Source: Limnothrix sp. BL-A-16 (GTDB taxonomy: Bacteria > Cyanobacteriota > Cyanobacteriia > CACIAM-69d). From it: a DNA stretch of 64,000 bases. The notes below the pieces were generated by a model. It was not told where the DNA came from. It ran no database searches and worked only from the letters and a program-made list of their open reading frames with translations. The translations under genes and the position numbers were made by a program. Each line of letters begins with the position of its first letter. Position 1 is the stretch's first letter. The stretch covers positions 4,352,001 through 4,416,000 of the forward strand of contig CP166615.1 in NCBI GenBank assembly GCA_041937175.2, written 5' to 3'. Below, in pieces: positions 3,076 to 60,700 of the stretch.

Positions 3076-3079
3076 CCCC

Positions 3080-6264: not shown

Positions 6265-6271
6265 GATGTTT

Positions 6272-7209: not shown

Positions 7210-7231
7210 TCATCCCTGATCGCTCTGTCCT

Positions 7232-13871: not shown

Positions 13872-13886
13872 GGACTCGATCTGGAA

Positions 13887-30137: not shown

Positions 30138-30242
30138 ACATTTCCCGTCGTTTACAGGCTGGGTGGGATGTCAAACAGCCCTGCCGGATGGCGTTCCAGA
30201 CGAAGCGATCTAGATTGGAAATGCTGGTTGGGGAACAACACC

Positions 30243-42165: not shown

Positions 42166-42210
42166 ATCGCCAGCACAGCAAAACACTCGTTCCAGTCCTG
42201 TTCCAATCCC

Positions 42211-42254: not shown

Positions 42255-42923
42255 AATTGCCTCCACCTCCTTCAAATCCTTTTGCATCAGTAGAAACCCG
42301 TACTCCCCAAAATCGGAGCTTTAACCCGCCGATTCATACCTGGCTTACTCTCCGCCGCTCTCCGCCTCCGCTTCGTCACCCCCCGATCGCCTGTGATCTG
42401 TCACCACGTCACCAATTGATTCAGAAAACGCCCATCTTTCGCGTTCATTAGAGAGCGGAAATCAGCCGAAAGATAATCTTTGCATTTTTGTCTATTCCTC
42501 AATTCTGAAGCCTATTCCGTAACCTTCATCTGGAAAGCCTTGTCCCAATCGATCGACGGCGGTTGGCTGTCTCTTGGGTTTAATGAAACTAATTAGGAAA
42601 GCTTGCGACAATCATAGGTTGCTGAAATATTTGATTGCTTTGCATTCATATTGTTTTTATGTGCTTAACGATACCTAAAGGCAGGAAAATCGAGATTTTT
42701 CAAGTATAAAAACATTCATCAAACGCTAAGAACGATCAAATGTGCAAAGACTGAAAAATTGTATATTTGAATACGGTTTAAGATAAAATTAAAGAATTTC
42801 AAAAACTTGTAAAAAAATAATTCATGGTGACTTTTCCAAAAAAATTGGAGTACACTACCTGGGGAGTGCAGGCGTGCAAATACAGAGCGTCGCCGACCGT
42901 TAGCAACGTAAACAGTGACAGTC

Positions 42924-43130
42924 ATGGGAAATAGCACAAAGTCCTCGAAATTTCCGATTGTTATTGAAATGGAGCCACAGGCAAACTCTGACATCGAAGA
43001 ATTGGTGAACTCCGGCAAAGGTCTCATTTGTGACAACGTGTCCGTTGCCCTAGAACAACTGAAAGCCCAAGGAATTTTGCCCGAAAGCGTCATCCCCGTA
43101 TTTGTTGTTGTTGCATCCTCCGACGACTAG
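42924..43130 (+). CDS. Small (68 aa) hypothetical protein, first gene of the PKS cluster
   Basis: ATG ORF; homologous to the C-terminal domain of 45212-46150, which supports it being a real gene. Confidence 0.75.
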   Translation: MGNSTKSSKFPIVIEMEPQANSDIEELVNSGKGLICDNVSVALEQLKAQGILPESVIPVFVVVASSDD

Positions 43131-43246
43131 TGAAGAACTGATGTGCAATCATCCCCAAAGGCCGCTGAGCTGAAGCTTGAGCTGAAGTTTTGGGGACAGA
43201 TTTCGCAAGTGTCCGATCGTCCCGTGTAAGCATCAGCACAAATTTA

Positions 43247-44971
43247 ATGATTCAGCCCGATCTGATCCCGATCCCACTGGAATTGCCGCCAGAGCAAAGA
43301 TTGCTCCCGGTTAATGACTTAAGCTTCCTGAAGAACCGAATCGTTTTGGTGTTGTACGAGGTTTCTCGGCTGACCCTCAAGTACTCCCTCAAGAATGCGA
43401 TGGGTGCAGCCAACCTCAAAGCAGAGCTGGCTCGGGATATTCGGTTCTCCATCGAAAAGCTGGGGGGATTGCTGATTAAGGTGGGTCAGCTCCTGTCGCT
43501 TCGTCTGGATCTCTTCCCCGCCGAAATTTGCCAAGAACTCTCCAAGCTTCAGGATCGATCCTATGGGTTTTCCCTGGACTATGTTCGGCAAATTATCCAA
43601 GAGGAATTAGGTCTCCCTCTGGAAAGGATATTCGTTGAGTTTGAAGAGCGGCCCTTTGCGGCTGCGTCAATCTCGCAAGTCCACAGGGCCCGAATCCCGT
43701 CCTTTCCTGGTGTGGTTGCCGTTAAGGTTCAGCGCCCAGATGTCGAAGAAAAGTTTAGCCAAGATCTACAGCTCATCCGCTTCCTGCTCTCCCTCATCAA
43801 AAAGCTGAAGCTACAGAGCTATGTGGATTGGGACAGCATCAGCCTAGAGCTGGATCAAATGATTCAGGAGGAAATTGATTATCGCTACGAAGCATCCAAT
43901 CTAGAGCAGATGGCAGCAACGCTCAGGGAACATAACATCTATGTTCCTGCTTTGATTGCTGACTACAGCACCAAAAAAGTCCTGACCACGGAATATATTC
44001 CCGGCATTTTGATGTCAGATTATATCCGCGCCGCCAGCACTGATCCCGAATATCTAGAAAAGATTCTTCGACTCAATAATATTGACCCGGAGTTGGTGGG
44101 CAAGCGTCTTTTTGAAAGTTTCTTCCGTCAAATGCTGGAAGATAACCTATTCCATGGGGACTTGCATCCTGGCAACATCATGCTGCTGCGGGATAGTCAC
44201 ATTTGCCTCATTGATTTGGGGGCGATCGGCAGTCTCGATTCCCACTTTCTGCGCTACTACCGGCGCAGTATGCAGGCCCTTGGAGAACGGGACTACGATC
44301 GAGCACTGGATTACAGTTTGATGTTGTGCGATTCCCTACCCGCAGGAGACATTGAAAACGTCAAAACGCAGCTCACCCAGTGCTATCGTCAGTGGGATGC
44401 CAAAATGAACATCCGCAGTCTTTCATACAATGAGAAGTCGATCGGCTCGATCGGTGTTCAAATTGGAACAGTCATGCGCAAGAACCGCATTTCCTCCAGT
44501 TGGCAATTGCTGCGAGTCTTCCGCACCTGGGGATTGATGGATGCTTCCTTGAACTATCTAATTCCCAACGCAGATTACATGAGTCTCGTTGGCGGATATT
44601 TTCGAGGTGCCGTTAAGCGCAGTCAGCTTCAGCTTAAGCAACTTGGCATCAATGGCATTGTGATGCAACTCACAGAAAAAGTTGCCGAACTTTCCGATCT
44701 GACAACGATCGAGCTTCGTAGTAAAGCAGTTCGCAAAAAAACAGTTGTTGATCAGAAAACCTCGTCAAAGCTCGCTGACAAAGCTAAAAAACTAATCTGG
44801 CTAGCGATCATCGTTCTGGCTTGGGTTTTCCTGCACCAACACCTCGAAATAGCCGTGAACTGGCTACCACCTAATCAATACTCGGCTTGGGCTGAAAGCA
44901 TCCCAGATCTCGCTATTGAAGTTTGGGTTGGGATCCTAATCTTCTGGGTCTACCTACTCAAAATTCTCTAG
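43247..44971 (+). CDS. AarF/UbiB/ABC1 family atypical kinase with C-terminal TM helices
   Basis: IKVGQLLS (KxGQ), AAASISQVH, VAVKVQRP, FHGDLHPGN, IDLG. Confidence 0.92.
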   Translation: MIQPDLIPIPLELPPEQRLLPVNDLSFLKNRIVLVLYEVSRLTLKYSLKNAMGAANLKAELARDIRFSIEKLGGLLIKVGQLLSLRLDLFPAEICQELSKLQDRSYGFSLDYVRQIIQEELGLPLERIFVEFEERPFAAASISQVHRARIPSFPGVVAVKVQRPDVEEKFSQDLQLIRFLLSLIKKLKLQSYVDWDSISLELDQMIQEEIDYRYEASNLEQMAATLREHNIYVPALIADYSTKKVLTTEYIPGILMSDYIRAASTDPEYLEKILRLNNIDPELVGKRLFESFFRQMLEDNLFHGDLHPGNIMLLRDSHICLIDLGAIGSLDSHFLRYYRRSMQALGERDYDRALDYSLMLCDSLPAGDIENVKTQLTQCYRQWDAKMNIRSLSYNEKSIGSIGVQIGTVMRKNRISSSWQLLRVFRTWGLMDASLNYLIPNADYMSLVGGYFRGAVKRSQLQLKQLGINGIVMQLTEKVAELSDLTTIELRSKAVRKKTVVDQKTSSKLADKAKKLIWLAIIVLAWVFLHQHLEIAVNWLPPNQYSAWAESIPDLAIEVWVGILIFWVYLLKIL

Positions 44972-45211
44972 TTTTGATGACATTTTTTCTTGGAGGTCAA
45001 TCCGATTCATGTAGAATATTAAGAAAGTCGAACATGCTTATTCGGCTATCAGGAAATATTCTAAAATTCGCGAGAGATGGTTGTTTTGTGAATTAAATTC
45101 AGGTCAGCATTAATACTTCAGTATTTAACACTCCAGTATTAATGAGCATGTCTGTTTTTATTCAATAGTTTGGTTTGGAAATGACACCAATCATCCAAGG
45201 TTCTAATCGCC

Positions 45212-46150
45212 ATGACTTCAGTACTGCATTTTGATGGTCAGTCGAATTACATCCGAATTCCCCATCAAGAGTCTCTCTCCCCCGTTAATAACTTCACCTT
45301 CGAAGCTTGGCTGAACGCTGGGCAAATTGGCGGTTACCTACGCTTATTCTCTAAATTTCCAGGCTTTGGCTTTGGCCTCATCAACGAAGCACTACTTTTT
45401 ACGGAATATTGGATTGTTGACTATGCAGCCCCCGTCGCGATCGAAGCGGGCACTTGGTATCACGTCGCCATCGTCTTCAACGCTGACAACGATGTGCTCT
45501 TCTATCTCGATGGAGAGCTAATCCAGACCATCCTAGGCGACACCCCCGCCTCCGCCACCCAAAGCCCCCTCGAAATTGGCCGCAAAGCAGAGGGCCACGG
45601 CGAATATTTCCAAGGCGATTTGACCGAAGTTCGGTTCTGGGGCACTGCTCGCACTCAAGAGCAAATCCAAGCCTATAAGTCCTATCGATTGCTCGGATCT
45701 GAGGAAAATCTATTGGGCTATTGGCCTTTAAACGAAGGCAGCGGAGATGTCATCCACGACAAGAGCACCGCTGCTAACCACGGCACTTTGCAAGGCTCCC
45801 CCATTTGGAAGAGTGCTGCACTGGAACTCCCAGAAATTCTTCCTCACATCCCGCTGCCCGCTGAGGTTCAAGAAGCCGAAGCCGCTGCCGCCGAAGCCGC
45901 TGCCGCAACCGACACCATCCCTAGCCCTGGTTCCTTCCCCATCATTGTTGAACTGGAATCCGATGAAGCAACGCCCGATCGGTGCTTCGAAGAGTTGCTG
46001 ACCAAAGGAAATGGTGTGATTTACAACGGAGTCACCCAAACCCTCGTCGCCATGCGGGAGCAAGGACAAATCACCAAAGCAACAACCCCCGTTTTTGTCA
46101 TTATTCGGCGCACTCCTGAAGCCAAGAGCCTACTGCCATTTTCTCTGTAG
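45212..46150 (+). CDS. LamG-like jellyroll (ConA/pentraxin-like) protein fused to the small cluster domain
   Basis: L.FDG...Y, FTFEAW, W.HVA, FQG.L.EVRFW..AR, GYWPLNEG.G; Ala/Glu linker; C-terminal FPIIVE...PVFVII domain. Confidence 0.82.
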   Translation: MTSVLHFDGQSNYIRIPHQESLSPVNNFTFEAWLNAGQIGGYLRLFSKFPGFGFGLINEALLFTEYWIVDYAAPVAIEAGTWYHVAIVFNADNDVLFYLDGELIQTILGDTPASATQSPLEIGRKAEGHGEYFQGDLTEVRFWGTARTQEQIQAYKSYRLLGSEENLLGYWPLNEGSGDVIHDKSTAANHGTLQGSPIWKSAALELPEILPHIPLPAEVQEAEAAAAEAAAATDTIPSPGSFPIIVELESDEATPDRCFEELLTKGNGVIYNGVTQTLVAMREQGQITKATTPVFVIIRRTPEAKSLLPFSL

Positions 46151-46316: not shown

Positions 46317-47213
46317 ATGAGCAGCGGTAACTACAAAAACCTGGCACTGCAAGCAGGAGGCGTGTTAGGAACAGCCTACGTAGGGGTTGTGCAAGCCCTG
46401 AGTGAGCGCGGTCTTCTCTCCAAATTTGAGCGAGTTGCCGGGGCCTCCGCAGGAGCCATTATGGGAACCTTAATTGCCCTGAGGTTCTCGGCAGCAGAGA
46501 TCGAAGAAATTATGGTGAACCTGAACCTATCAGAGTTCACCGATCCCACCAGCCCGATTAATCTCGTCCAGAATTATGGTTACTACGCCGGGGATGTTTT
46601 CTATAAGTGGATTCAAGACATCATCGCGCGCAAACTAACAACAACCGCCACCTTTGCAGATCTCGTAGATGCTGGATTTGCCGATCTGTATATCTTCGGC
46701 ACAGACTTGACCGCTCGAGGATTGCGGGAGTTTTCCTGCCGCTCCACTCCTGACGCACAAGTTGCGGGCGCAGTGCGCGCTTCCATGTCTATTCCCTTCT
46801 TTTTCCAAGCTTGGCAATTTCCTGGTGGCATTCCCGATAACCACTACTATGTCGATGGTGGCTTGATCTTGCCCTACCCCCTGTGGACATTTGATTATCC
46901 GCCCTTCATCAGCGAAGATGGCTACAACGAAGAAACCTTGGGCGTGAGCTTAAGAACCGGCTTCAGCCCCTCCGGTCTAGAAAAAAGCTTTGACCTGAAG
47001 GAGTATTTTGAAAGCCTATTTGAGGCTGCATCCTCCATCCGAATCAGCTCTAGGAACCAAGAGCGGACGATCACCGTTGACACCTTGAATCTCTCGCCCA
47101 CTGATTTCAACATGAGCGACGAGAATAAGATGCGGCTAGTGAAAAGTGGTTATGATGCCACCGTAGAATTCTTCAAACTCAAGGATGAACTGGCAGTGCT
47201 CTCTGCTGCTTAA
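46317..47213 (+). CDS. Patatin-like phospholipase/acyl hydrolase
   Basis: AGGVLG oxyanion loop, GASAG nucleophile, ASMSIP, DGG; RBS AAGGAG. Confidence 0.92.
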   Translation: MSSGNYKNLALQAGGVLGTAYVGVVQALSERGLLSKFERVAGASAGAIMGTLIALRFSAAEIEEIMVNLNLSEFTDPTSPINLVQNYGYYAGDVFYKWIQDIIARKLTTTATFADLVDAGFADLYIFGTDLTARGLREFSCRSTPDAQVAGAVRASMSIPFFFQAWQFPGGIPDNHYYVDGGLILPYPLWTFDYPPFISEDGYNEETLGVSLRTGFSPSGLEKSFDLKEYFESLFEAASSIRISSRNQERTITVDTLNLSPTDFNMSDENKMRLVKSGYDATVEFFKLKDELAVLSAA

Positions 47214-47403
47214 GTGAGTGATGAATTCATGGGAGCAATGTCATTTCCCCATCTAAATTGGTCATGATATCGCGTTGACTAACTTGGGTATCTGTTCCCA
47301 ATCTGACAAGCATAATCAGTGCTAGCAAAGGCACTTTATGCAAAATTTTCTTAATTGGTCAGTTAGCTTCTCTCTGTCCTGCCACAAAGGGATGATTGCT
47401 CCC

Positions 47404-48678
47404 ATGAAATTTGGAATTGTCTGCCCACCTGTTCCAGGACATCTCTACGGGATGATGACCATTGGGCGGGAGCTAGAAAGGCGTGGGCACTCCGTTTACT
47501 TATTAGGAATCGGAGATGTTGAACCCTACGCTCGAAAGGGAGGGGTTGGTTTTGTTGAAATTGGAAAAGAGGAGTTTCCACCTGGAGCCTTAGACCAATA
47601 CCTCGACCTCATTCGTAATGTGACAATTTCCACAATTCGTAAGGGCGTTGCCTGGGCAGAGGTCATGTGTCAAGCCCTCTGCCGTGACGGGGCAACGGCT
47701 GCTCGTGAACTTGGTTTAGATGGTCTGTTGGTCGATCAAAGCCAAACGGAGGGAAAGACCATTTCCGACTTAACAGGGATTCCCTTCCTATCCATTTGCA
47801 ATGCTCTCAATCTGGAGGGCGATGCTTCTGGTGAGGCTCCGCCGCCCTTTGTTTCTTGGTATCCTGCACAAGGAAAAGCCCTATTTCGCCTCAGAAACCG
47901 TCTGGGCAATTGGGCTTTTTCTGCTGTTTTGAATCCCATCATCGCCACCACTAATAAGCTCAGAAAAGCTCACAGTTTGCCGTTACTTCAAAATTGGGAA
48001 AATTGTATTTCGCCCTTGGGTGTCATTAGTAATTTTCCATCGAAGCTAGATTTTTCCAGGGGCTTGAATCAGCGTCCCATTTTTTATACGGGGCCCTACC
48101 TGGATGAGCGGCCTAATGATGTGGCCTTTGATTGGAGCCTGTTAGATGGACGGCCTTTGGTCTATGCATCCATGGGCACGTTGCACACAGCTAAAAAGGA
48201 GATTTTGAGCGCCATTGTGGCTGCCTGCTCCACATTGCCTGTGCAGTTGGTTCTGAGTTTGGGGCAATGGACTTTGGAACAAGCTGATCAGTCTTTTCCT
48301 GCTGGCACGATCGCCGTACCCTATGCGCCTCAGCTTGCTCTGCTCCGGCGAGCATCCTTGGCAATCACGCATGGGGGTGCGAATACGGTTTTGGAAGCGC
48401 TTTCTTTTGGCTGTCCCTTGATTACGATTCCGCTGGCTAGCGATCAGCCTGCTGTTTCTGCTCGTGTCACTTGGGCGGGTGCAGGGACAACCATCGCTCA
48501 AAAGCAAGTGGATGCAGTACGGCTACGTCAATTGATTGTTCAGGTTTTGGAGAACCCCGATTTCAAAAATTGTGCTGGAGTTATGAAGACAGAAATTGAG
48601 AATTCCGGAGGTGTGAAAGCAGCGGTCAATGTAATTGAATCAGTCTTTAGTTCTGCTACTATTTCTGCTGCCCGTTAG
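47404..48678 (+). CDS. GT1 (MGT/CrtX-like) glycosyltransferase
   Basis: PPVPGH, LVYASMGT, APQLALL, ITHGGANT.LE, DQP. Confidence 0.9.
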   Translation: MKFGIVCPPVPGHLYGMMTIGRELERRGHSVYLLGIGDVEPYARKGGVGFVEIGKEEFPPGALDQYLDLIRNVTISTIRKGVAWAEVMCQALCRDGATAARELGLDGLLVDQSQTEGKTISDLTGIPFLSICNALNLEGDASGEAPPPFVSWYPAQGKALFRLRNRLGNWAFSAVLNPIIATTNKLRKAHSLPLLQNWENCISPLGVISNFPSKLDFSRGLNQRPIFYTGPYLDERPNDVAFDWSLLDGRPLVYASMGTLHTAKKEILSAIVAACSTLPVQLVLSLGQWTLEQADQSFPAGTIAVPYAPQLALLRRASLAITHGGANTVLEALSFGCPLITIPLASDQPAVSARVTWAGAGTTIAQKQVDAVRLRQLIVQVLENPDFKNCAGVMKTEIENSGGVKAAVNVIESVFSSATISAAR

Positions 48679-49271: not shown

Positions 49272-49589
49272 ATGCCAGAAGCCATGCGAACTCCCATTCA
49301 GGTTGGATCAGAAATCAAGCGAATCATCACATTTGAGGTTAACTCAATTGGTGAAGCCATGCCGGTTGTGATTTATAAAAAGAAGGTCGTTGACCCTGCT
49401 GCCCAACCAGGTGCGATCGAGGTTGCTCCAGTTTCTGCTAAGGGAATTTTGGAAAAGATTGTCGATTCGCAAATTCAGGCTGCCAGTGAGTTCAAAGTTC
49501 TCAATGAGCAATCAGGGGAGAAGTGGCTTAAAGACCTGGCCAAGAACATCTCACTCGCCATTGTTAAAGGCGGAGATGCACTTGCTTAA
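49272..49589 (+). CDS. Small hypothetical protein (105 aa)
   Basis: ATG ORF with GAGG RBS in AT-rich DNA, followed by a terminator; PVVIYKK...WLKDL pattern. Confidence 0.65.
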   Translation: MPEAMRTPIQVGSEIKRIITFEVNSIGEAMPVVIYKKKVVDPAAQPGAIEVAPVSAKGILEKIVDSQIQAASEFKVLNEQSGEKWLKDLAKNISLAIVKGGDALA

Positions 49590-49611
49590 ATGGCGAGTTT
49601 TTCAGTCGGAC

Positions 49612-49929: not shown

Positions 49930-51228
49930 ATGTTTTCGTCTTCAGAATTTCCTGCTTCAGCGCAAGATAAAATTCAATACATCAGTTTGGCAACTTGCAA
50001 TGGCATTATCCAATGCATTTTTGCGCTAGATAGTTGTCTTAATGAGGAGCTTTTTTTCAAGAGCTTTGACTTGGTTTTAGAGTCAGAAGTGATTCTGCAA
50101 TGCCAGTGGGTAAACAATAGCGTATCACCCTACTGGTCGTTACCTGAAGAAAAACACAAAGACCGATTTAAACTACTTCAAGTGGTTGATGTGCAACAGG
50201 CGGTTGAAGAGTTTATATCTTGTTCGATCGATCCAACAACAGATAGTTTAGTTCAATTGAGAATTTTTCGACATCAAGACGAAAACGCGTTTCAAGATAC
50301 GTTTTGCCTCAAGATGTCACACATTGTTTCTGATCTCAGTGGACTCCGGTTTTTTCTTCAGTCCCTTGCTGAAACTTACGGGGTACTGCAAACCGGCCAA
50401 GAATGTGCCCCGAGTCCTGTGACCATTCGGCGCGATGGATGGCAAGTTTTTAGCAAGCTACCTCCAAAAAAAAGATGGCAATTGCTGCAAAAGGGTAAGA
50501 AAAACTTCTTAAAGCCAGGGCAATGGAAAATCCCATTTGATAACTATAATTACGAGGCTCCGACTTATACCACCTACCAATTGGGTCAGGAACAAATTGA
50601 AAGGCTGACTGAGTATGCCAAAGGGCGCGGGGCTACCTTGAATCAAGTTATGTTGACAGGTTTTTTGCGTGCCCTGCATCGATTCACGGACGCAGAACCC
50701 GATTCGTCGCTTCCGATTATCAACACCCTCGACCTTCGCCATTATCTCCGGCATGGGGATCTGCCTAAAATTTGCAATCTTTCGGTTCCGTTAGTTTCCA
50801 ACATTGATTTCAATCGAAAAGACTCTTTTGAAGACACATTATCTGGAATCAAATCAGATCTCATGAGTCAAAAAAGAACAATGCCTGGCATTTTGCCAGC
50901 AGTTTCGATGGAAGTTTTATTTCTTGCTCCGTTTTCGTGGATTAGTTGGTTATTTAATCAGGCATTTTCTCAGTTTGCTGAATCAGGAATTTGCACACCC
51001 TTATTTTCAGATGGTGGCAATGCTGACATCAGTATTCCAGGGCATCAAGTGGTTTATGCCTACGGTTTGGGGCCCATTGCTTATGCTCCAGCTTTTATGA
51101 TGACGGCTTCTACCTTTAGAAGTACTGTCACGTTTGCTGTGGGCTTCTGCGAATCTTCCATTAGTCGCAGTAATATGAACAAAATATTTGACTTGATGGC
51201 GGAGGAGTTTGCAAGCTGCACTGTCTGA
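49930..51228 (+). CDS. Stand-alone condensation-domain-like acyltransferase (HxxxD fold)
   Basis: SHIVSDLSG (HHxxxDG-like), ATLNQVML, LDLRHYL, CNLS. Confidence 0.75.
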   Translation: MFSSSEFPASAQDKIQYISLATCNGIIQCIFALDSCLNEELFFKSFDLVLESEVILQCQWVNNSVSPYWSLPEEKHKDRFKLLQVVDVQQAVEEFISCSIDPTTDSLVQLRIFRHQDENAFQDTFCLKMSHIVSDLSGLRFFLQSLAETYGVLQTGQECAPSPVTIRRDGWQVFSKLPPKKRWQLLQKGKKNFLKPGQWKIPFDNYNYEAPTYTTYQLGQEQIERLTEYAKGRGATLNQVMLTGFLRALHRFTDAEPDSSLPIINTLDLRHYLRHGDLPKICNLSVPLVSNIDFNRKDSFEDTLSGIKSDLMSQKRTMPGILPAVSMEVLFLAPFSWISWLFNQAFSQFAESGICTPLFSDGGNADISIPGHQVVYAYGLGPIAYAPAFMMTASTFRSTVTFAVGFCESSISRSNMNKIFDLMAEEFASCTV

Positions 51229-51453: not shown

Positions 51454-52326
51454 ATGATGAATTTAAATGTTGTTCTCTTTCCGGGTCAAGGATCCCAATT
51501 TTGTGGAATGGGGAGTGAACTATTTCCTCATTATCCGCAGCTTTTGCAGCAGGCAGACAATGTTCTTGGCTTTTCAGTGAAAGAGTTGTGCTTGCATGAT
51601 CCCAATGGTGATTTGAGCCGGACGGAATTTACCCAAATTGCCTTATTTGTTGTGAATGCATTGGCTTGGCAGTTCCATATTGATTCGGGTGAATTTTGGC
51701 CTAGCGCGGCTTGCGGGCATTCTTTGGGCGAATATAATGCATTATTTGCAGCGGGAGTGTTTGATTTTGAAACGGGGCTAAATTTAATTCGATATCGAGG
51801 GCAATTGATGGGCCGTCAGCAGGGCGGTGGCATGGCGGCAGTGATTGGCAGCAATGCGGAGAAAATTCGCAAAATTCTAGATGATTTTGCATTTGATACA
51901 GTTGATATTGCGAACTATAATTCGCCTCGGCAAGTGGTCATTTCAGGGCCCAAGCGCGATATTGATGATTTGGCGGCTGTGTTTGAGGAAATCCCAGACA
52001 CGAGATATGTGGTGTTGAATGTTAGCGGGGCTTTTCACTCGCGTTACATGCAAGAAGCGGCGCGGGAGTTTGGAGAATTTATCCGAACCATGAATTTTCG
52101 TGCTCCGCGATTTTCGGTGATTGCTAACACTTCAGCGCAGCCGTATACGCTGGAGAATGTGGTTGAGAATTTAACGCAACAAATTGCAAGTCCGGTGCGC
52201 TGGACAGAGACGATCGCCCATTTGTGCGATCGGGGAAAATGCACGTTTCAAGAATTAGGAGTGGGCAACACACTAACCCGATTGCTATATCAAATCTCTC
52301 CAGATTTGGTTCCCGAAAAGGTTTAA
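51454..52326 (+). CDS. Trans-acting malonyl-CoA:ACP acyltransferase (FabD/PksC-like)
   Basis: FPGQGSQ, GHSLGEY, R in RYRG, ANYN, SGAFHS (malonyl-type), PVRW. Confidence 0.92.
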   Translation: MMNLNVVLFPGQGSQFCGMGSELFPHYPQLLQQADNVLGFSVKELCLHDPNGDLSRTEFTQIALFVVNALAWQFHIDSGEFWPSAACGHSLGEYNALFAAGVFDFETGLNLIRYRGQLMGRQQGGGMAAVIGSNAEKIRKILDDFAFDTVDIANYNSPRQVVISGPKRDIDDLAAVFEEIPDTRYVVLNVSGAFHSRYMQEAAREFGEFIRTMNFRAPRFSVIANTSAQPYTLENVVENLTQQIASPVRWTETIAHLCDRGKCTFQELGVGNTLTRLLYQISPDLVPEKV

Positions 52327-52380
52327 GAGAAATTTAAAAGCGCAAGTTGCAAGCTCAGTTGAAGACTAGGAGTTGAAGCC

Positions 52381-53370
52381 ATGGCTGCGAAGGTTGTCTT
52401 CATGTTTCCTGGTCAGGGATCGCAGTATATGGAAATGGGACAGGAGCTATATCGCTGTAATCCTGTTTTCCAGAACTGCATGAATGAATTTTCTGAAGCA
52501 GCGTTGCCGCTTTTGGGCATTCATTTGGCCGCTGAGCTGTTTGCTGACTCGCAAACGGCGCTGACAGAAGATTCAAAACTACTTTTGTATACGCGATACA
52601 GTAATCCGCTGCTATTTACGTTTAACTATGCGGTGGCAGCGACGATCGAGTCGATGGGTGTTATTCCTGACTTGGTTTTGGGATATAGCCTCGGAGAGTT
52701 GACGGCAGCAGCCTACAGCGGTGTGGTGGATCGCTTTCAATTGCTGGTTACTTTAATTCGCGCGTCCTTCGCCTTTGAATCCTACACACCGGTTGGGGGA
52801 ATGCTAGCCATTTTGGATGGGTTAAATCTCTGGCATCAACATCCCGATTGGTTTCAAGATACTGCTTTGGCTAGTATTAATTGCAGCCAAAGTTTTGTGG
52901 TCAGTGGTCGATCGAGCAGCCTCGATCGGCTAGAGCAAATTTTGCAGAGTCAATCGGTGTTGTTTCAGCGCTTGCCGGTGATCCAAGCATTTCATTCCCC
53001 TTGGATTGATTCAGCCCAAGAGATTATTTCTCGAGAATTCGATCGCTTACCCCAGCTCCAAACCGGTCGCTTTTGGCGTTATGGGTGTGGCGATCGCGCT
53101 GATGATCCGCAACCAGCTCAGTCGGTGCGTACTTTCTGGGAGGCATTCCGTAATCCCATTAACTTTGAAAAGGCGTTGCGAGGCTTGGAATCAATGGGAA
53201 CCAATCTTTATCTAGATGTGGGATCAAATGGCACTTTGGCTGGGTTTGTGCGGGTAATTTTGAACTCATCTTCTCCCTCAAAAGGTGTTGCAGTGATGGA
53301 TCGCTTTGGACAAAATGTGCAATCGCTTGAGCGAGCCATAAATTTAGCGAAAAAATGGCATTCAGATTAA
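52381..53370 (+). CDS. Second AT-fold enzyme, probable proofreading acyl hydrolase (PksD/PedC-like)
   Basis: FPGQGSQY, GYSLGE, QAFHS; appears to lack the malonyl-binding Arg context; paired with the AT as in trans-AT clusters. Confidence 0.75.
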   Translation: MAAKVVFMFPGQGSQYMEMGQELYRCNPVFQNCMNEFSEAALPLLGIHLAAELFADSQTALTEDSKLLLYTRYSNPLLFTFNYAVAATIESMGVIPDLVLGYSLGELTAAAYSGVVDRFQLLVTLIRASFAFESYTPVGGMLAILDGLNLWHQHPDWFQDTALASINCSQSFVVSGRSSSLDRLEQILQSQSVLFQRLPVIQAFHSPWIDSAQEIISREFDRLPQLQTGRFWRYGCGDRADDPQPAQSVRTFWEAFRNPINFEKALRGLESMGTNLYLDVGSNGTLAGFVRVILNSSSPSKGVAVMDRFGQNVQSLERAINLAKKWHSD

Positions 53371-53938: not shown

Positions 53939-54688
53939 ATGCGATCGATTACTTGCCGATTTGAGTGTGTGAACATTGCCAACTACGTTGACGTTGCACC
54001 CTATCGATCGCAACTGCTCTCGCCTGCGGAGTTGGACTATTTTGAAAAGCTGCCTGTTTTGAGGCGGCGGATGTCGTACTTGATGGGGCGAATGGCGGCC
54101 AAAGGGGCTTTGGTTCAATTAATTGGGGATTGTGACTATCGATCGATCTCCATCGAACCAGGTAGCTTTGGGCAGCCGGTGGTGCGGTATGGAGGGCAGG
54201 AGCCGTTTGAAGTGAGCATCGCCCACGATTCTGGCCAGGCCGTCGCGGTGGCTTTTGAGGCGGGCTACCCCGTGGGCATTGATGTGGAGACCTTTAATCC
54301 CGCGCTTTATCAAACTTTGATTGATGCGGTTCCAGATTCCGAAAAAAGCTGGTGTGACAGAACCTTTCATCAATATCCTCAATATCCCCAGCGGCTATTG
54401 GCCCTTTGGACTTTAAAAGAAGCCCTATCAAAAGTGTTGCGCTGCGGCATGACTGTGCCGATGGAGCTGTTGTCGATCGCGGATTTGCAATGCATTTTCC
54501 CCAATCACTATCGAGCCAGCTTTCGGCACTTTGCCCAATATCAAGCTCACCTGTGGATTGCTGATCAAACCGTGCTTTCGGTGGTCTTTCCGCGACAAAC
54601 GGAAATTAATTTCGATCCTTTTCAACAATCATGGTTTAGCCAAAATGCTCTCCATCCAATGGTTGACTCATTCGACTTGGCGGGATGA
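53939..54688 (+). CDS. Sfp-type 4'-phosphopantetheinyl transferase
   Basis: GRMAAK, FGQP, VSIAH, VGIDVE, WTLKEALSK. Confidence 0.9.
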   Translation: MRSITCRFECVNIANYVDVAPYRSQLLSPAELDYFEKLPVLRRRMSYLMGRMAAKGALVQLIGDCDYRSISIEPGSFGQPVVRYGGQEPFEVSIAHDSGQAVAVAFEAGYPVGIDVETFNPALYQTLIDAVPDSEKSWCDRTFHQYPQYPQRLLALWTLKEALSKVLRCGMTVPMELLSIADLQCIFPNHYRASFRHFAQYQAHLWIADQTVLSVVFPRQTEINFDPFQQSWFSQNALHPMVDSFDLAG

Positions 54689-54772
54689 GTTGGCAGCCTC
54701 ATCCCAATCGCCCTAATCGCTTCAGTAATGACTGCCTCACGAAAAATTAAAGCTGATTTGAGATACCCCACC

Positions 54773-57700
54773 ATGACTCAAGATATCGCTGTAATTGGTT
54801 TGGCTGGTCGCTTTCCTGGGGCGGCGGATATTGATGAATTTTGGGGCAATTTGGCGGCAGGGGTGAACTCGATCGGGGAAATTCCGCCCGATCGCTGGGA
54901 TCACCAAGCCTACCGCGAACAAACGGGCAATAAATGGGGCGGTTTCCTAAAGGATTGGCGATCGTTTGATGCGGGATTTTTTGCCATTTCCCCCCGAGAA
55001 GCCAAGTACATGGATCCTCAACAGCGGTTGCTATTGGAGGTGGCTTGGCATTGCGTGGAAGAAGCCGGCCTGTCCTTAGCCTCGCTCCGTCAGCAGCCAA
55101 CAGGGGTCTATCTGGGTGCGATGACCATGGACTATTGGCAAGTCACGACGGATCCTCAGGTGGAAATTGATGGGTTTTCGGGGCTAGGCAGCTACAGTTG
55201 CATTCTGTCGAATCGGCTGTCCCATGTGTTGGGTCTCAGCGGCCCGAGCTTGACCCTGGACACGGCCTGCTCTTCGTCTTTGGTGGCCATCCATTTGGCT
55301 CGGCAGGCGTTGCTATCGGGTGAATGTGAATTGGCCTTTGCGGGTGGGGTGACCCTCAACCATCGTCCTTGGAAGCATCTGTCATTTTCCCGCGCAAGGA
55401 TGCTGAGTCCAACGGGTCAATGCCGCACGTTTGATGCTCAGGCCGATGGCTATGTGCCCGGCGAAGGCTGTGGGGTGCTGTTGCTTCAGCCCCTGGAACG
55501 GGCGATCGCCCAGAATCGCCGGATCTTTGGGGTGATTCGGGGCAGCGCCGTGAACCATTCGGCGGTGGGTGAGTCGATCACAGCCCCCAACGTGGGACGA
55601 CAGGCCCGACTGTTGAAGGCGGCCTACGCCGATGCCCAAGTGGATCCGGCCACGGTGACCTATGTGGAAGCCCATGGCACGGGAACTTCCCTGGGTGACC
55701 CGATCGAGATGGAGGCCCTTTCCCAGGCCTTCCGCACCACGGCCAAGGCGATCGGCTATTGCCAGGTGGGTTCCGTGAAAACCAACATCGGCCATTTGGA
55801 AGCGGCGGCGGGAATTGCCGGGGTGATCAAGGTCTTGATGATGTTGCAGCATCGCCAGATTCCCGCCAGCTTGAACTTAACGACTCCCAACCCGCTCATC
55901 GACTTCACCACCTCTCCCTTTGTGCCAGCGGTGGCGCTTGGTTCCTGGGAACCGGCGGCGGTGGATTTGCCGTTGCGAGCGGGGGTGAGTTCCTTCGGCT
56001 TTGGGGGCAGCAATGCCCACTTGGTGTTGGAAGAGCCGCCCCGGTTGCCCGTTGTGGCCGAGGGCGCTGGATCGCCGTTGGCGTTGGCGACAGGGGATCC
56101 GGGCCAAGGGGCCCCGGAGATGGGCGATCGGGCAACGGCCGTGATTCCCTTCCTGTTGTCTGCCAAATCAGCACGTAGCTTGGCCGCCTTGGTGGCTCAG
56201 TGGGGCCAGGAAGGGGCGCAACGGGTGGCCGCAGCCGACTTGGGGACGATCGCGGCGAACCTGGCCCTGGGGCGCGAGAGTTTGCCTTGGCGATTTGGTT
56301 GTTTGGCCAGCAGTTGGGCCGATGTGCAGCGGGCGTTGGCGCAATTTGAGCTGCCGTCTCAACCCGTGGCGGCGACGGTGGAAACGCCTTCGGAGGCGCG
56401 ATCGACCTTGGGCCGGCTGGTGCAAGATCCCGAGGCGTTCAAGGCCCTTTGGGCATCGGTGGCGTTGCCGGAGGCCGATTGGGAATCGGTGTTGCAGGTG
56501 GCCCGCACCCTGTGGCGACGGCAAATGACCTTTACGCGCTTTGTGGAAACCTGGCGGCAACCGTTGGCGCAGGCGGGCATTGACCTTGATTCAGTGTTGC
56601 AAGCTCCATTGCAATCAGAATCCTCATCCCCATTGCGATCGGCGGTACTGCAATCGGACTCACTGCGATCGAACGCACCTCACCCAGAGCATCGAATTTT
56701 GGTGTTTGTGGCAATTCGCAGCAGCTTGGCTCGCCTGTGCCAAAAGTGGGATTTGACCGATCGCTATCCCACGGGGTCGGCGGCCTTGGCGGAATTGGCG
56801 CGGGCCTTCACGGTGGGGGTGCTGGATCCGGCCATGGATTGGCCGGTTTTGCTGTCGGGATTGCTGCCCGATCGCCCGCGATCGGTGGCAGAGTTGCCCG
56901 AGGCGCTGGCTCCCGAGGATGGGGGAAGTTCGGTGCAGTCGGCCCTGGCGGCCTGGCTGGCGGGCCGCCCGGTGGATTGGTCAGCCCATTTCCCGGCCAC
57001 CTATCCCAAATTGTCCCTGCCGCGCTATCCCTTCGATCGCCAGTTGTATTGGCTCTTTCCCAAAACATCCGAGGGCGATCGGCCGGCTCCGTTGCCCGCT
57101 GCCACGGCGGCCCGTGAGGTGCTGCCCTCCTCCGGGGCCTCGTCGGAGCGCTGGGAACAGGTGTTTCCCGAAACAGATTTGGTGCTGCGATCGCACTTTT
57201 TAAATGGGCGCTGGATTTTGCCCGCCGCCAGCTTCATTGGCTTGGCCTGGGATGCGGTGACCCGATCGCTGGGGCGATCGCCCGGATTGCTAACAGAGAT
57301 TACCTTGCACCAGGCCGTGGCCTTGGGGGTGGGGGATGCGGAGGCCGTGACCTTGGGGGCCCAGGTGGAGTTGCCGAATCGGGTTCAGGTTTGGCAGCGC
57401 GATCGCCTGATTTTGAGCGCCACCTTTACGGATTCATCCTCAGAGTTGCCCCTCGATCAAGTGGCCGGGCGATCGCCGGATTCCCACGCGGTGGGCCGTG
57501 ATGGGGTGGGCGAGATTTCGGGAACGGCCATTTATGCCGCCTTGCGATCGCGCGGCTATCAGTATGGAAGAGCCTTGCAGGTGATCCATCAGGCCCAAAT
57601 CACCGATGAAGTAGCTACCTTCCAACTGCAAGCCCCCAATCGCACCGCCTTCTTGGATGGGATTTTGCAAGCGGCCGTGTATTTACACCAGCAATGGTTT

Positions 57701-60700
57701 GCGGAACGGGGCGGCGATCCTCGAGATTTTGTTGTGCCGGGGCAAGTGGTGGGCTGTTGGTGGGGATCCCAGTTGCAAGCCCAGTGGGAATCGTCATCCG
57801 CTTCAGCAATTTCCCCCACAGCATCGCCCGATCGATCCGCCGATCTGGAGACTGGCGAGCCTTCATCCTGGGTCACCGTGCGGTTTGAGCGCCAACAATG
57901 CCGGGCCCAGGCCACCGAAAGCCAGTTTTCGGCGATCGCGATCGGGACGGATGGCCGCCCCCTGGCCATGATTCGGGAGTTAACCCTGGCGGCGGCCCCC
58001 TTGCTTGCGCCGGAGGTGTCCTACTTTGAAACCGACTGGACTGTTTTGCCCGCCGCCACTGCATCCCCAACTCAGGCCACTGCCGCGCCGACGATCATCT
58101 TTGCCCAGGGGGCTGCTTGGGGCTTGGCCTTACGCCAACGGCTGCGATCGCAGGGAATTGAGGCTCAGTTGTGCCTAGCCGGTTCAACCTTTGAGGTTTT
58201 GGGCGATCGGGTTTGCCAGTGGGATTGGACAGATCCAGACCAAGTGCGCCAGGGCCTGACGCATCTGTTGGCTCCCGAGCAATTCCGGGCGATCGCAGGG
58301 GCCGACGCGATCGACTCGCCTCTTTCTCCAACCCTGGTCTATTGGGTCACGGCTCCCCCGGCGGCGGGGTCAGGTCATGGACTCCGGGGCGATCGGGATT
58401 GGGTCACCCAAGCCGAAGCCGATTTGAACCAGGGCGTGCGTGGTTGTTTTCTGTTCTTGCAGCGGTGGGCGAAAGTGCGCCCCGCCGATCCGCTCCAGCT
58501 TTTGGCCGTGACCTTTGATGCCCAAGCTGTGACCCCGAGCGATCGGGTTTTGGGGTTTGCCACGGCGGGGATTGATGCCTTGGGGCGCACGGTGGCCCTG
58601 GAGTTGCCCCAAATCCGCCTGAAATCCCTGGACTTGGCGTTGGGACTAACCGTTGGGGAAGCCAGCGCCATGATCGCGGCGGAAGCGGCGACCCCTTGGG
58701 AGCATGATCGCGTGGCCTATCGCGGGGGCGATCGCTATGGGGCCGAGTTGCGGGCAGTGGCCCCCGGATCTGCGCCTCCCTTGCCGGTTTCAGTCCTGGA
58801 GCCGGGATCTTGCATTTTAATCACCGGTGGGAGTGGGGCCTTGGCCGCAGAGGTGGCCGAGGCGATCGCGCTGCAAACGGCCGTTCATTTTCTGCTGGTG
58901 GGTCGATCACCCCGCCGGGCCCAAACTGACCAACTGATCGCCCTGCTGGAATCCTTGGGATCCACGGCGGATTATTTGCAAGTAGACCTGTGCCAAGAAG
59001 CCGACCTCGATCGACTCACAGAGACCCTGAAAACCACCCACCGCGCCATTCACGGCGTGATTCATACGGCTGGGCAATTAGACGATCGGCTGTTCCATGC
59101 CCAAACCCTCGCCTCCCTCGATCGGCTGATTGCTCCCAAGTTCCTTGGGGCCTTGCGCTTGGAACAACGGTTGCAGGATCAGCCCGTGGCCTTTTGGTTG
59201 GGATTTTCCTCAATCACCGTGGCGGCCGGCAACCCTGGACAGGCGAACTACGTGGTGGCGAATCGGCTGCTGGAAGCCTTTTGTGCTTACCGCGATCGCC
59301 ATTGGCCCGGACGCGCCGGGGCGATTCAGTGGGGCCTGTGGCGATCGCGCGGCATGGGAGCCACCGACATGCTGGCCGAGCGGTTCCAGCGATCGGGCAT
59401 GGAACCCTTTAGCGCGGCAGCCGGTCGGTTTGCCTTCCTTGATGTGCTGACCAGCGATCGCCCTCAGCCCGTCCTGGTCACCGGTAAAGGCACGGACGCA
59501 ACCATCTTTGAGCGCTTCTCCCGATCGCGCCCCGCTCCGAATGTGGCCCCAGCCTTGCCTGCTCCCCTGACCCCGGCGGCGATCGCCCCATCTGCTCCGC
59601 CGCCCCAGCCCACCCCCTCGATCGCCACCATCGAGCAAGAATTGGCCGCCCTGGTTGCCCGCACCCTGAACACCGATCCCCAATCCGTGCCCCGTCAGGA
59701 AGGGTTTTTCAGCCTGGGTCTGGAGTCCTTGATGATTGAGGAAATTGTGGCAACCCTCGAAAAGCAATATTCCGGCCTGCGGCCCACCGTCCTGTTTGAC
59801 TATCCGAACATCAAAGTGCTGGCCACCCACCTGGCCCAGCTAACCGCGCCCGCTGGATCCACCACCGCGCCGGCCACTCCATCTCCGGCGGCCCCCTCTC
59901 CATTGGCCTCAGTTCCTAGCCCGGTCGCGCCAGCCCCAACCCAGGTCACCCGATCGCCCAATCCTGTACCCTTCCTGGGGCCGCAAGCTTTGGCCGCCAA
60001 AGCTCCCGATCTCAAGACTTCCGATATTCAAGCTCCTGAGGTGAAGGCCCCTGAGGCGAAGGTTCCTGACACCGGAGCCACCAACACTCAGGCCCCCATC
60101 CCCCAAACCCAGAGCCTGGAGTTGCCCGATCGGCAGCGGCCCCCCGGTGGCTATGACATCGCGATTATTGGGATCGATGGTTGCTATCCCCAGTCTCCTG
60201 ACCTGGAGACCTTTTGGCAAAACCTGTATCAAGGGCGATCGTGCGTCACGGAAGTGCCCGCCAACCGTTGGGATTACCAGCCGTACTTTGCGGAAACCAA
60301 ACAGCCCAATCGCACCTATGGCAAGTGGGGCGGCTTTATCCCGGGGGTTGAAGAATTTGACCCGCTGTTTTTTAACATTGCGCCCAAGGAAGCCAAGCAA
60401 ATTGACCCCCAAGCGCGGCTGTTTCTCCAGTCGGTTTGGCACACGATGGAAAATGCGGGCTATGGCAGCCGTCAATCGCGCCGGGGAGAACGGGTTGGCC
60501 TCTTTGTTGGGGCCATGTGGCACGACTATTCCCACGTGGCGCGGGATTTAAGTTGGAGTGCCGATCAGCCCAGTGGCGCTGGGGCCTTGTTTTGGATTAT
60601 TGCCAACCGGGTTTCCCATTTCCTGGATTTCACGGGGCCCAGTTTGGCGATCGATACCGCTTGTTCTTCGTCCCTGACGGCGATTCACTTGGCTTGCCAG

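Follow-up and report, generated by a model that had tools for sequence, protein, structure and literature searches.

The locus analysed here raises the question why one small domain should be encoded twice around a single kinase-like gene, once as a free-standing protein and once as the tail of a lectin-like protein. It lies within a stretch of 64,000 nucleotides from Limnothrix sp. BL-A-16 (hereafter the window). As judged from their sequences, both segments genuinely belong to the Pfam family DUF6200 (PF19702), as divergent members, and are arranged as follows:

42924..43130, forward strand: free-standing DUF6200 protein (68 aa from ATG 42924; 71 aa from GTG 42915)
43190..44971, forward strand: dedicated ABC1/UbiB-family atypical kinase/ATPase with C-terminal hydrophobic segments (PF03109, 207.8 bits; cut-off 22.9)
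45212..46150, forward strand: LamG-DUF6200 fusion protein, 312 aa (PF13385, 88.3 bits; PF19702, 22.8 bits)

Two copies of one domain

The domain core of the free copy spans nt 42951-43112, and its ATG start at 42924 matches that of a 99%-identical 68-aa database protein. In the fusion protein a Laminin_G_3 domain (PF13385, residues 8-153, nt 45233-45670, above the cut-off at 88.3 bits) is followed by an Ala/Glu linker (residues 221-232, nt 45872-45907) and by the 57-residue DUF6200 tail (residues 242-298, nt 45935-46105). No N-terminal signal peptide was recognized by eye in this protein. The original prediction, made from the DNA sequence, held that one domain is present both free and fused to LamG, behind a linker in the second instance, and that the two copies flank the ABC1 kinase. 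All of this is borne out, as are the positions of the two copies (ORF 42915/42924-43130 and nt 45935-46105). The significance of the pairwise similarity, named beforehand as a possible point of failure, lies far beyond chance, with 37% identity over 57 residues and a BLASTP E-value of 8e-11 (single comparison).

A resemblance to DUF6200 that had been put forward also proves correct. The free copy matches PF19702 with 29.5 bits (E 6.1e-7; 28.3 bits in the genome scan), above the cut-off of 26.9 bits. With 22.8 bits (E 7.3e-5; 25.8 bits in the genome scan) the fused copy stays under this cut-off, which is cleared at 27.9 bits by the orthologous tail in another cyanobacterial genome (L030). A six-frame search of the whole genome with the Pfam model gave no third copy, and an HMM of 143 DUF6200 members, including both window copies, found no third copy below E 0.19 among the 74,773 genome ORFs.

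Fold and family traits of DUF6200

DUF6200 is a domain of ~60 residues with a strand-helix-helix-strand layout, found free and as a C-terminal tail. The AlphaFold2 model of the free copy (mean pLDDT 83.5) consists of a strand (residues 15-18), two helices (24-33 and 37-51) and a second strand (62-65), in the same order as had been predicted. G34, G36 and P61 are invariant in an alignment of 11 DUF6200 sequences; among 143 sequences G36 is invariant, and L30, G34, G53 and P61 are conserved in at least 90%. The window copies share this core with the Pfam family, including the hydrophobic first strand, the Gly-x-Gly turn between the helices and the Pro preceding the hydrophobic last strand. They differ from the rest of DUF6200 as a small acidic subfamily without a basic tail: the family is for the most part strongly basic (median net charge +6), but both window copies are acidic, with a net charge of about -6 for the free copy. 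In a phylogenetic tree this subfamily clusters with P0108, P0140 and P0020 at 100/100 support. The Pfam model, which at E≤1e-3 matches 603 representative clusters, barely detects or misses the subfamily, and the free copies of L029 and L030 surfaced only with a custom HMM. Signal-peptide-like N-termini are present in three of 141 free representatives, plus one judged by eye.

A Foldseek search with the DUF6200 model reveals no fold relative in the PDB (best E 1.6), and a wide VIA-align search reached a Z-score of only 3.3; as the fold has no solved relative, the fold search gives no functional lead. The best full-length match of a sequence profile against the PDB, 4l3u (E 0.058), has an unconvincing alignment. 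Searches with the free copy returned DUF6200 clusters only (Protein Atlas) and nothing beyond its own cluster (word-based protein search). The 4-oxalocrotonate tautomerase fold, which requires a catalytic N-terminal proline, was considered and rejected: VIA-align Z-scores are 2.3-3.0, Foldseek E-values lie above 3, and the window protein begins with Met-Gly-Asn, ~10 residues ahead of the first strand. A literature search found no paper naming DUF6200, and none naming DUF6312, the family introduced below.

The ABC1 protein between the copies

The free DUF6200 gene lies directly 5' of the ABC1 gene, with a gap of 59 nt. Motifs that we take to be KxGQ, the Ala-rich loop, HxDxHPGN and DLG can be read in the ABC1 translation. 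The four other ABC1 paralogues of the genome score at most 153 bits, and full-length orthologues are present in DUF6200-bearing genomes. The protein matches the UbiB models, but UbiB proper is rejected as its identity, both equivalog cut-offs being missed (257 versus 487.55 bits for TIGR01982 and 202 versus 667 bits for NF003404).

Three characterized systems offer a comparison. According to a preprint (bioRxiv 10.64898/2026.03.05.709815), UbiB works with UbiJ and UbiK on a hydrophobic product embedded in the membrane; it needs small accessory factors, and a role in extracting membrane intermediates has been proposed for it. Here, too, an ABC1/UbiB-family protein is encoded with small proteins. 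Unlike the UbiB system, the window context comprises PKS genes rather than quinone genes, and no Pfam match to UbiJ or UbiK was detected in DUF6200 or DUF6312. The best solved relative of the window protein is MABP-1 (Rv3197; 7cy2, 107.8 bits; 5yjz, 104.6 bits), a mycobacterial ABC1-type ATPase that binds macrolides (PMC8696161, PMC6208485; no DUF6200-like partner is named in the opening lines of the abstracts). The similarity is at family level (124 bits versus an 800-bit cut-off); a parallel to the polyketide link of MABP-1 is that the glycosyltransferase (GT) near the window ABC1 gene belongs to the macrolide-GT family. Finally, a lipid-droplet association and an effect on alkane trafficking have been proposed for a cyanobacterial ABC1 kinase (PMC7660261), but this is a different paralogue from the window gene. 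Plastoglobule and lipid-droplet ABC1 kinases associate with neutral-lipid bodies; for the window ABC1 protein such a body would be hypothetical.

Organization of the gene cluster

DUF6200, ABC1 and LamG-DUF6200 are followed co-directionally by genes for a patatin and a macrolide-type GT, together a five-gene cassette, and 3' of the GT by a DUF6312-like ORF, acyltransferases, a phosphopantetheinyl transferase (PPTase) and a trans-AT PKS:

46317..47213, forward strand: patatin-like phospholipase, cassette gene 4 (PF01734, 101.5 bits)
47338..48678, forward strand: GT1 glycosyltransferase of the macrolide-GT (MGT) type, cassette gene 5 (PF00201, PF06722)
49272..49589, forward strand: 105-aa ORF, probable divergent DUF6312 relative (custom-HMM match)
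49930..51228, forward strand: condensation-domain-like acyltransferase (PF00668, 34.9 bits)
51454..53370, forward strand: two discrete acyltransferases (trans-AT), 51454-52326 and 52381-53370 (PF00698, 123.7 and 104.6 bits)
53939..54688, forward strand: 4'-phosphopantetheinyl transferase (PF01648, 47.9 bits)
54728..63418, forward strand: AT-less multimodular PKS with three KS, DH, KR and ACP (Pfam domains)

The GT scores 128 bits against the MGT model TIGR01426, short of the model cut-off, and Pfam reports no Acyl_transf_1 domain in the PKS. A PapA_C/condensation protein is also present in a related cluster (G344).

The 105-aa ORF is probably a divergent relative of DUF6312 (PF19831), a weak candidate as judged from profile comparisons. 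With an HMM of eight non-window DUF6312 sequences it ranks first among the 74,773 genome ORFs (E 0.0043, 19.3 bits), the match covering the full model length (HMM positions 3-94) and the runner-up reaching only E 7.2, and hhalign aligns it to DUF6312 with E 4e-4 at a probability of only 34%. An earlier five-sequence HMM gave no match at default filters and E 1.8 unfiltered. Pfam returns no match for this ORF at E≤0.01, the genome scan shows no PF19831 either, and the Protein Atlas gave no usable match; a search for longer DUF6312 relatives found none, these probably being crowded out by lysine-rich words. A terminator-like hairpin is located at 49580-49598, at the end of the ORF.

Metatranscriptome contigs cover the free DUF6200 gene and extend into ABC1, a single contig spanning both genes in two studies, and the deepest RNA-library contig of run X9 is that of the 105-aa ORF. 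Such contigs indicate presence in RNA libraries only, and uncovered stretches (e.g. 48525-49235) are uninformative.

Conservation in other genomes

The five-gene cassette recurs, with PKS genes following, in another cyanobacterial family (L029, L030 and L031). The identities are 56% for free DUF6200, 65% for ABC1 (871-873 bits), 65-74% for the patatin, which occupies the equivalent position, and 60-62% for the GT; the LamG-DUF6200 protein shares 46% identity with the last ~315 aa of the multi-lectin proteins from L029 and L030. The order free copy, ABC1, lectin-fused copy is thereby repeated in two cyanobacterial genomes besides that of the window, and DUF6200 adjoins ABC1 orthologues and/or PKS genes in G160, G274, G344, L023, L025 and L026, in agreement with the predicted link to ABC1 and PKS loci.

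Within a phylum sample of 401 genomes, DUF6200 above the cut-off and the ABC1 orthologue (E≤1e-60; three first-look candidates scored per genome) are present in the same four genomes, three of which also contain DUF6312. The orthologue was seen in DUF6200-positive genomes only, both among these 401 (4/4) and among another 151 (1/1), and each of five further DUF6200-positive genomes has exactly one full-length orthologue (336-355 bits; paralogues at most 157 bits).

Seven loci from Cyanobacteriota, Acidobacteriota and Planctomycetota were found with a narrower DUF6200 alignment. DUF6312 adjoins DUF6200 in all seven and is divergently transcribed from it in L023-L026. An ABC1 orthologue lies within the flanks of three, and L025 and L026 share with the window its position directly 3' of DUF6200; none is present within the fetched flanks of L022, L024, L027 and L028. 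A PKS, PPTase or RND transporter is found near these loci; PPTases flank DUF6200 in L022 and L023. Two of three positive Acidobacteriota genomes contain DUF6200 without the ABC1 orthologue, and a second G274 locus consists of tandem DUF6200 and a glycosyltransferase only, with no PKS within 20 kb. Weak DUF6200-like matches (E about 1e-3) occur in G148, G330 and G223, and the ABC1 orthologue is absent from G148 and G330. Literature searches on ABC1, cyanobacteria, PKS and laminin G found nothing on the cassette, and no paper was found that unites four of the terms patatin, trans-AT, cyanobacteria, lectin and ABC1.

DUF6200 and DUF6312 as C-terminal tails

DUF6200 and DUF6312 are each also found at the very C-terminus of LamG or jacalin lectins and of class-3 lipases, the DUF6200 tails behind a low-complexity linker. 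Among the best 150 representatives, the DUF6200 domain ends 0-10 residues before the C-terminus in all nine proteins longer than 130 aa, and 19 longer relatives include 12 with Lipase_3 and three with LamG. LamG proteins bear either a DUF6200 or a DUF6312 tail, as expected if both tails share one destination. In the tree the fused copy of the window pairs with its own free copy (support 98/82), and other LamG-fused and lipase-fused copies form separate clades (100/99 and 99/97), which points to repeated acquisition of the tail from local free copies; the LamG-DUF6200 fusion originated at least twice. A free copy is present in 10 of the 11 genomes with a fused copy, and in one survey 11 genomes contain copies of free size only. 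The DUF6312 partnership, the class-3 lipase and jacalin tails and the dedicated ABC1 paralogue go beyond what the original prediction had observed.

Proposed function

The set of DUF6200, ABC1 and lectin-DUF6200, recurrent near PKS genes across several bacterial groups, looks like an undescribed helper module, and the full cassette (DUF6200, ABC1, lectin-DUF6200, patatin and macrolide-type GT) marks one class of cyanobacterial PKS clusters. Its composition suggests that the product is a glycosylated, lipid-like polyketide requiring dedicated handling. As a tentative best explanation of all observations, DUF6200 and DUF6312 may constitute a portable assembly or address module that, together with ABC1, handles this polyketide lipid. 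Free DUF6200 copies, with their usual neighbour DUF6312, would form a small core, probably held by edge-strand pairing of the free copies, which C-terminally tagged lectins and lipases could join via the same domain. In the original prediction, free and fused copies would co-assemble as oligomers, for example into a coat on a lipid body or PKS complex. The unit would act at the membrane, beside the anchored ABC1 protein, and may hold, extract or deliver the hydrophobic glycosylated polyketide of the neighbouring PKS, with the lectin domains binding the sugar head group and the patatin or lipase remodelling acyl chains. Precedents are provided by ABC1 proteins with small factors (UbiB with UbiJ and UbiK) and by the macrolide-binding MABP-1. 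Counting against the proposal are the occurrence of DUF6200 without the ABC1 orthologue or without PKS (the second G274 locus), the 11 genomes with free-size copies only and the weakness of the DUF6312 candidate. The signal-peptide-like N-termini of a few free members fit poorly with a cytoplasmic assembly, and the contrast between the basic family and the acidic window copy implies that the family may lack one uniform partner.

A wider proposal, which we regard as distinctly unlikely, is that DUF6200, DUF6312 and the dedicated ABC1 protein represent an unrecognized bacterial protein-targeting and lipid-handling system. The two small proteins would assemble into a scaffold, located on a patch of membrane or a lipid body in which a polyketide glycolipid is stored, with their domains doubling as C-terminal address tags for lectin, lipase and phospholipase partners: a prokaryotic counterpart of the ABC1-kinase-bearing plastoglobule, spread horizontally with PKS clusters. 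Adaptor domains that exist both free and fused to enzymes are known from the mycobacterial PE/PPE pairs and the PE-lipase LipY. As in PE/PPE, two small neighbouring families are each also fused to lipases and other cargo. However, PE/PPE domains lie at the N-terminus, consist of helices and belong to ESX secretion, whereas DUF6200 and DUF6312 lie at the C-terminus and have no linked secretion system; neither Foldseek nor VIA-align detected a relation of DUF6200 to PE/PPE.

Irrespective of mechanism, two catalogued Pfam families without a function gain a concrete, testable context: in at least three phyla, DUF6200 and DUF6312 accompany a dedicated protein of the ABC1/UbiB type as well as polyketide or lipid genes. 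Even in ubiquinone synthesis ABC1/UbiB proteins are little understood, and natural small partners and tagged clients would provide a handle on how they treat hydrophobic products.

Alternative explanations

The extreme C-terminal position of the tail is also what a sorting signal would show. DUF6200 and DUF6312 may direct lectins and lipases without signal peptide to the envelope or the outside, the free copies being small co-exported proteins or pilots, a reading that we consider improbable. The LamG, jacalin, pentaxin-like and class-3 lipase domains are of a kind usually met in secreted proteins, and no N-terminal signal peptide was seen in any of the six fusion proteins examined; an RND/MMPL-type transporter adjoins the DUF6200/DUF6312 pair in L022, and the signal-peptide-like N-termini of a few free members indicate that the domain is apparently workable outside the cytoplasm. 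Against export, the constant partner is the ABC1 protein and not a transporter, and neither the window cassette nor the annotated clusters of L029, L030, G160, G274 and G344 contain an ABC exporter, HlyD or other secretion gene. At E≤1 the 312-aa protein matches Laminin_G_3, DUF6200 and two weak unrelated families, but no secretion-tail family of Pfam (e.g. type IX CTD). To our knowledge, known C-terminal signals do not have free-standing homologues encoded alongside.

DUF6200 might instead be a regulatory or ligand-presenting subunit of ABC1, acting as activator, as substrate or as adaptor for small molecules or lipids, comparable to UbiJ/UbiK for UbiB. Fused copies would then subject lectins and lipases to this control too, with no contact between DUF6200 domains. 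This would suit the position of DUF6200 immediately 5' of ABC1 in the window, L025, L026, L029 and L030, the RNA-library contigs across both genes, the confinement of the orthologue to DUF6200-positive genomes and the small factors required by UbiB (bioRxiv 10.64898/2026.03.05.709815). It is nevertheless rather unlikely: DUF6200 is also found without the ABC1 orthologue, the (near-)invariant positions are Gly, Gly, Leu and Pro, with no invariant Ser/Thr as phospho-acceptor, and ~60 residues offer little room for a lipid pocket.

A small nucleic-acid-binding regulator of the cluster, resembling ribbon-helix-helix (RHH) proteins, is very improbable. The strand-helix-helix order with the invariant Gly-x-Gly between the helices, the very basic nature of most members and the divergent transcription from DUF6312 in L023-L026 would fit such a role, but the acidic window copies do not, it would be hard to see why lipases and multi-lectin proteins should end in a DNA-binding domain, and no RHH protein appears among the Foldseek and VIA-align matches listed, although short folds can escape such searches. 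A chance or compositional resemblance of the two copies with no shared function, for which only the Pfam score of the fused copy speaks (22.8 versus 26.9 bits), is refuted by the pairwise E-value, by the two copies being the sole matches in the genome, by the retention of the free-plus-fused arrangement in other genomes and by the L030 tail passing the cut-off, and is given virtually no weight. A defence system was likewise rejected as an identity for the cluster, as PADLOC gave only weak patatin-effector matches and none for DUF6200, LamG or the 105-aa ORF. A CRISPR array adjoins the cluster.

Two DUF6200 domains in one gene series

The ORFs from 42.9 kb onwards form a co-directional series on the + strand.

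Genes of the DUF6200 region (coordinates within the window, strand, description)
42915–43130, +, free DUF6200 ORF, 71 aa; start probably ATG 42924
43190–44971, +, ABC1 atypical kinase ORF, 593 aa; ABC1 Pfam match of 207.8 bits
45212–46150, +, LamG-DUF6200 ORF, 312 aa; N-terminal Laminin_G_3, 88.3 bits
46317–47213, +, patatin-like phospholipase
47338–48678, +, GT1 glycosyltransferase (GT) of the macrolide-GT type
49272–49589, +, 105-aa ORF
3′ of the 105-aa ORF, +, condensation-like protein
3′ of the condensation-like protein, +, two discrete acyltransferases
3′ of the two acyltransferases, +, PPTase
3′ of the PPTase, up to 63418, +, AT-less PKS, 2,896 aa

The start of the small ORF is indicated by a 99%-identical database protein of 68 aa. 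Residues 13–66 of this ORF align with residues 242–298 of the 312-aa ORF at 37% identity (E 8e-11, BLASTP, single comparison), confirming the original prediction that one domain occurs both free-standing and fused to a LamG protein. The family name suggested with it, DUF6200, is also correct, as Pfam entry PF19702 matches both copies, the free copy with 29.5 bits, above the cut-off of 26.9 bits, and the fused copy with 22.8 bits, below it. An Ala/Glu linker occupies residues 221–232 of the fused protein. A genome-wide search revealed no third copy in the 4.56-Mb genome. Both domains are new and divergent representatives of a family that is catalogued but uncharacterised.

Size, domain placement and fold of the family

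A search of 1.84 billion representatives with a profile of 11 DUF6200 domains matches 603 clusters at E≤1e-3, 101 of them at E≤1e-10; in the Atlas clusters the family is found mainly in Cyanobacteriota, Acidobacteriota and Myxococcota. Free proteins of at most 120 aa account for 141 of the 150 best representatives, and in the nine longer proteins the domain lies 0–10 residues from the C-terminus. Among 19 longer relatives retrieved by a word search, 12 are Lipase_3-DUF6200 proteins and three carry LamG, including a 312-aa LamG-DUF6200 protein with the source name Limnothrix sp. FACHB-708. In the proteins compared, the placement of fused DUF6200 is exclusively C-terminal, and its fusion to lectins and lipases is a repeated event.

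The strand-helix-helix-strand layout that had been predicted is reproduced by an AlphaFold2 model based on a 143-sequence alignment (pLDDT 83.5), with strands at 15–18 and 62–65 and helices at 24–33 and 37–51. The inter-helix turn consists of an invariant Gly-x-Gly, and the last strand is preceded by a conserved Pro. No solved structure resembling the model was found by Foldseek (best E 1.6) or VIA-align (best Z 3.3), and a profile search of the PDB gave no convincing match.

Signal-peptide-like N-termini were detected in three of the 141 free representatives (P0024, P0026 and P0045) by a crude hydrophobic-window test, and in a further free protein, P0039, by eye. They may reflect mis-called starts, or may mark a subgroup acting outside the cytoplasm.

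A dedicated ABC1 paralogue and DUF6312 in Cyanobacteriota

DUF6200 exceeds the Pfam cut-off in four of 401 sampled genomes of the phylum (G000, G160, G274 and G344), and the window's ABC1 gene has a full-length orthologue at E≤1e-60 in exactly these four, with three first-look candidates scored per genome. The four other ABC1 paralogues of the window's genome score at most 153 bits each. All five further DUF6200-positive genomes possess one full-length orthologue (336–355 bits), with paralogues at or below 157 bits. The window's ABC1 gene is a dedicated paralogue with a tight genomic link to DUF6200.

DUF6312 (PF19831) is present only in G160, G274 and G344 of the 401-genome sample. The recurring set at the loci of these three genomes comprises free DUF6200, free DUF6312, the ABC1 orthologue, LamG-repeat proteins ending in DUF6200 or DUF6312, Lipase_3-DUF6200, a PapA/condensation acyltransferase, lipocalin-like proteins, a glycosyltransferase and modular PKSs. 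At one exceptional locus in G274, tandem DUF6200 genes are accompanied by a GT, with PKS and ABC1 absent within 20 kb. The G344 locus L015 encodes a 1,916-aa protein (600–7567) with eight LamG domains, pentaxin-like matches and DUF6312 at its end, a 377-aa LamG protein that likewise terminates in DUF6312, not DUF6200, and a class-3 lipase with a DUF6200 end.

The 105-aa ORF of the window gave no match in a Pfam search. With an HMM built from eight DUF6312 sequences of three phyla, window sequences excluded, it ranks first among 74,773 genome ORFs (E 0.0043, model positions 3–94), the runner-up having an E of 7.2; hhalign against DUF6312 gives an E of 4e-4 at a probability of just 34%. The ORF is probably a divergent DUF6312. 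The structural model of the DUF6312 family (pLDDT 64.5) shows two short N-terminal strands, a basic disordered stretch and long helices.

The same cassette in another cyanobacterial family

Three genomes of another cyanobacterial family, G477, G462 and G487, show weak Pfam DUF6200 matches within long ORFs. Their loci (L029–L031) carry the window's acidic DUF6200 subfamily, with a consensus of roughly PIIIEME...GKG.IYD...QMKAQG...VPVF, in the order DUF6200, ABC1, multi-lectin-DUF6200, patatin, GT, followed by FkbM methyltransferases and PKS.

Cassette proteins of L029–L031 and their identity to the window proteins
free DUF6200, 81–83 aa: 56% identical to the window copy
ABC1 orthologue: 65% identity, 871–873 bits
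multi-lectin protein(s), one or two: LamG x2–3, one also with jacalin; DUF6200 end
patatin: 65–74% identity
GT: 60–62% identity

The last ~315 residues of the multi-lectin proteins align with the whole window LamG-DUF6200 protein at 46% identity. Given the same gene order and identities of 46–74%, the five genes of the window therefore constitute a conserved unit, which is probably mobile; the acidic subfamily is under-detected by the Pfam model. In L029, two paralogous LamG-repeat proteins of 613 and 942 aa (7481–9319 and 11117–13942, minus strand) have a near-identical linker and DUF6200 tail, with an FkbM-type methyltransferase between them. The 1,333-aa counterpart in L030 contains an additional jacalin lectin domain.

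Origin of the fusion

In a domain tree of 47 sequences, built on a short alignment and with many unresolved forks, the window's fused copy pairs with its own free copy (support 98/82), nested together with P0108, P0140 and the Limnothrix protein in a clade supported at 100/100. The remaining LamG-fused copies cluster apart from these, next to a free copy (100/99), and the lipase-fused copies form their own clade (99/97). As the LamG-fused copies fall in separate supported clades, the tail was therefore joined to LamG at least twice, on this phylogeny with the free copy of the same lineage as its source on each occasion. Ten of 11 genomes with a fused copy also have a free one; the exception is a 670-contig assembly with the fused gene at a contig end.

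Neighbourhoods in other phyla

A narrow alignment yielded seven further loci, from a Planctomycetota genome, two Acidobacteriota, two unclassified MAGs and two Trichodesmium records. In all seven a DUF6312 gene adjoins DUF6200; the pair is divergent in L023–L026, and in L022 DUF6312 makes up the C-terminal portion of a 348-aa protein. L023, L025 and L026 have the ABC1 orthologue in their flanks, and in L025 and L026 it follows DUF6200 directly, as it does in the window. PKS genes occur at L023 and L024 and PPTases at L022 and L023; L022 also encodes an RND/MMPL-type transporter. Three of 151 sampled Acidobacteriota genomes contain DUF6200; the ABC1 orthologue (E≤1e-60) is present in one of these three and absent from the remaining 148. 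The neighbourhood is not uniform.

Possible role of DUF6200

Across the genomes compared, DUF6200 is tightly associated with DUF6312, the dedicated ABC1 paralogue, and PKS or lipid genes. We infer that DUF6200 may be a portable assembly or address module. Free DUF6200 and DUF6312 would form a core, which tagged lectins and lipases would join via their DUF6200 domain, and the core would act on a glycosylated, hydrophobic polyketide together with the membrane-anchored ABC1 protein. In our literature search, no paper mentioned DUF6200 or DUF6312 by name, and none described the cassette's gene combination.

Alternatively, DUF6200 could be an export or sorting tail, a reading favoured by fusion cargo of a secreted type that lacks a signal peptide and by the signal-like N-termini of a few free members. 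Another possibility is that it serves the ABC1 protein as a regulatory or ligand-presenting subunit. A role as a small DNA-binding regulator is unlikely.

For the assembly-module reading, analogues exist. UbiB has the small accessory factors UbiJ and UbiK (bioRxiv 10.64898/2026.03.05.709815) and may parallel an ABC1 protein with small DUF6200/DUF6312 partners. MABP-1, described in PMC8696161 and PMC6208485 as a macrolide-binding ABC1 ATPase, is a possible analogue of the window's ABC1 protein, encoded beside PKS genes. One cyanobacterial ABC1 kinase, a paralogue other than that of the window, was proposed to have a lipid-droplet role (PMC7660261).

Composition and surroundings of the cluster

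The G+C content of the accessory block (42.9–54.7 kb) is 46%, compared with 57% for the 39 kb that precede it and 62% for the PKS gene. The low G+C of the block, together with the 46–74% identity of the five-gene cassette to one in a different cyanobacterial family, suggests that the cluster was horizontally acquired and is mosaic.

Directly upstream of the cassette lies a CRISPR array (39303–42166; repeat ~36 nt, spacers ~35 nt), and the artificial minus-strand ORFs in this stretch are CRISPR repeats read through. Further upstream, a 950-aa CHAT-TPR-LRR protein (30168–33020, +) is encoded convergently with a 1,198-aa GAF-histidine kinase-receiver-adenylate/guanylate cyclase protein (33041–36637, −); these genes have no relation to the DUF6200 finding.

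RNA-library contigs

The cassette is covered at 95–100% identity by contigs of three RNA libraries from three studies, a coverage by which transcription cannot be proven. Twice, DUF6200 and the start of ABC1 are joined in a single contig. In RNA library X9 the deepest contig corresponds to the 105-aa DUF6312-like ORF, with a depth of 158.5 versus at most 28.3 for the other cassette genes. This contig (49266–49474) covers the ORF start, begins 6 nt before the ATG and carries adapter-like loose letters; its start cannot be taken as a transcript start. In the X1 contig 12 nt are missing at 43166, within the 59-nt DUF6200-ABC1 spacer. The relatives in X2 and X9 have one listed difference in the 207-nt DUF6200 gene, versus about 20 across the initial ~800 nt of ABC1.
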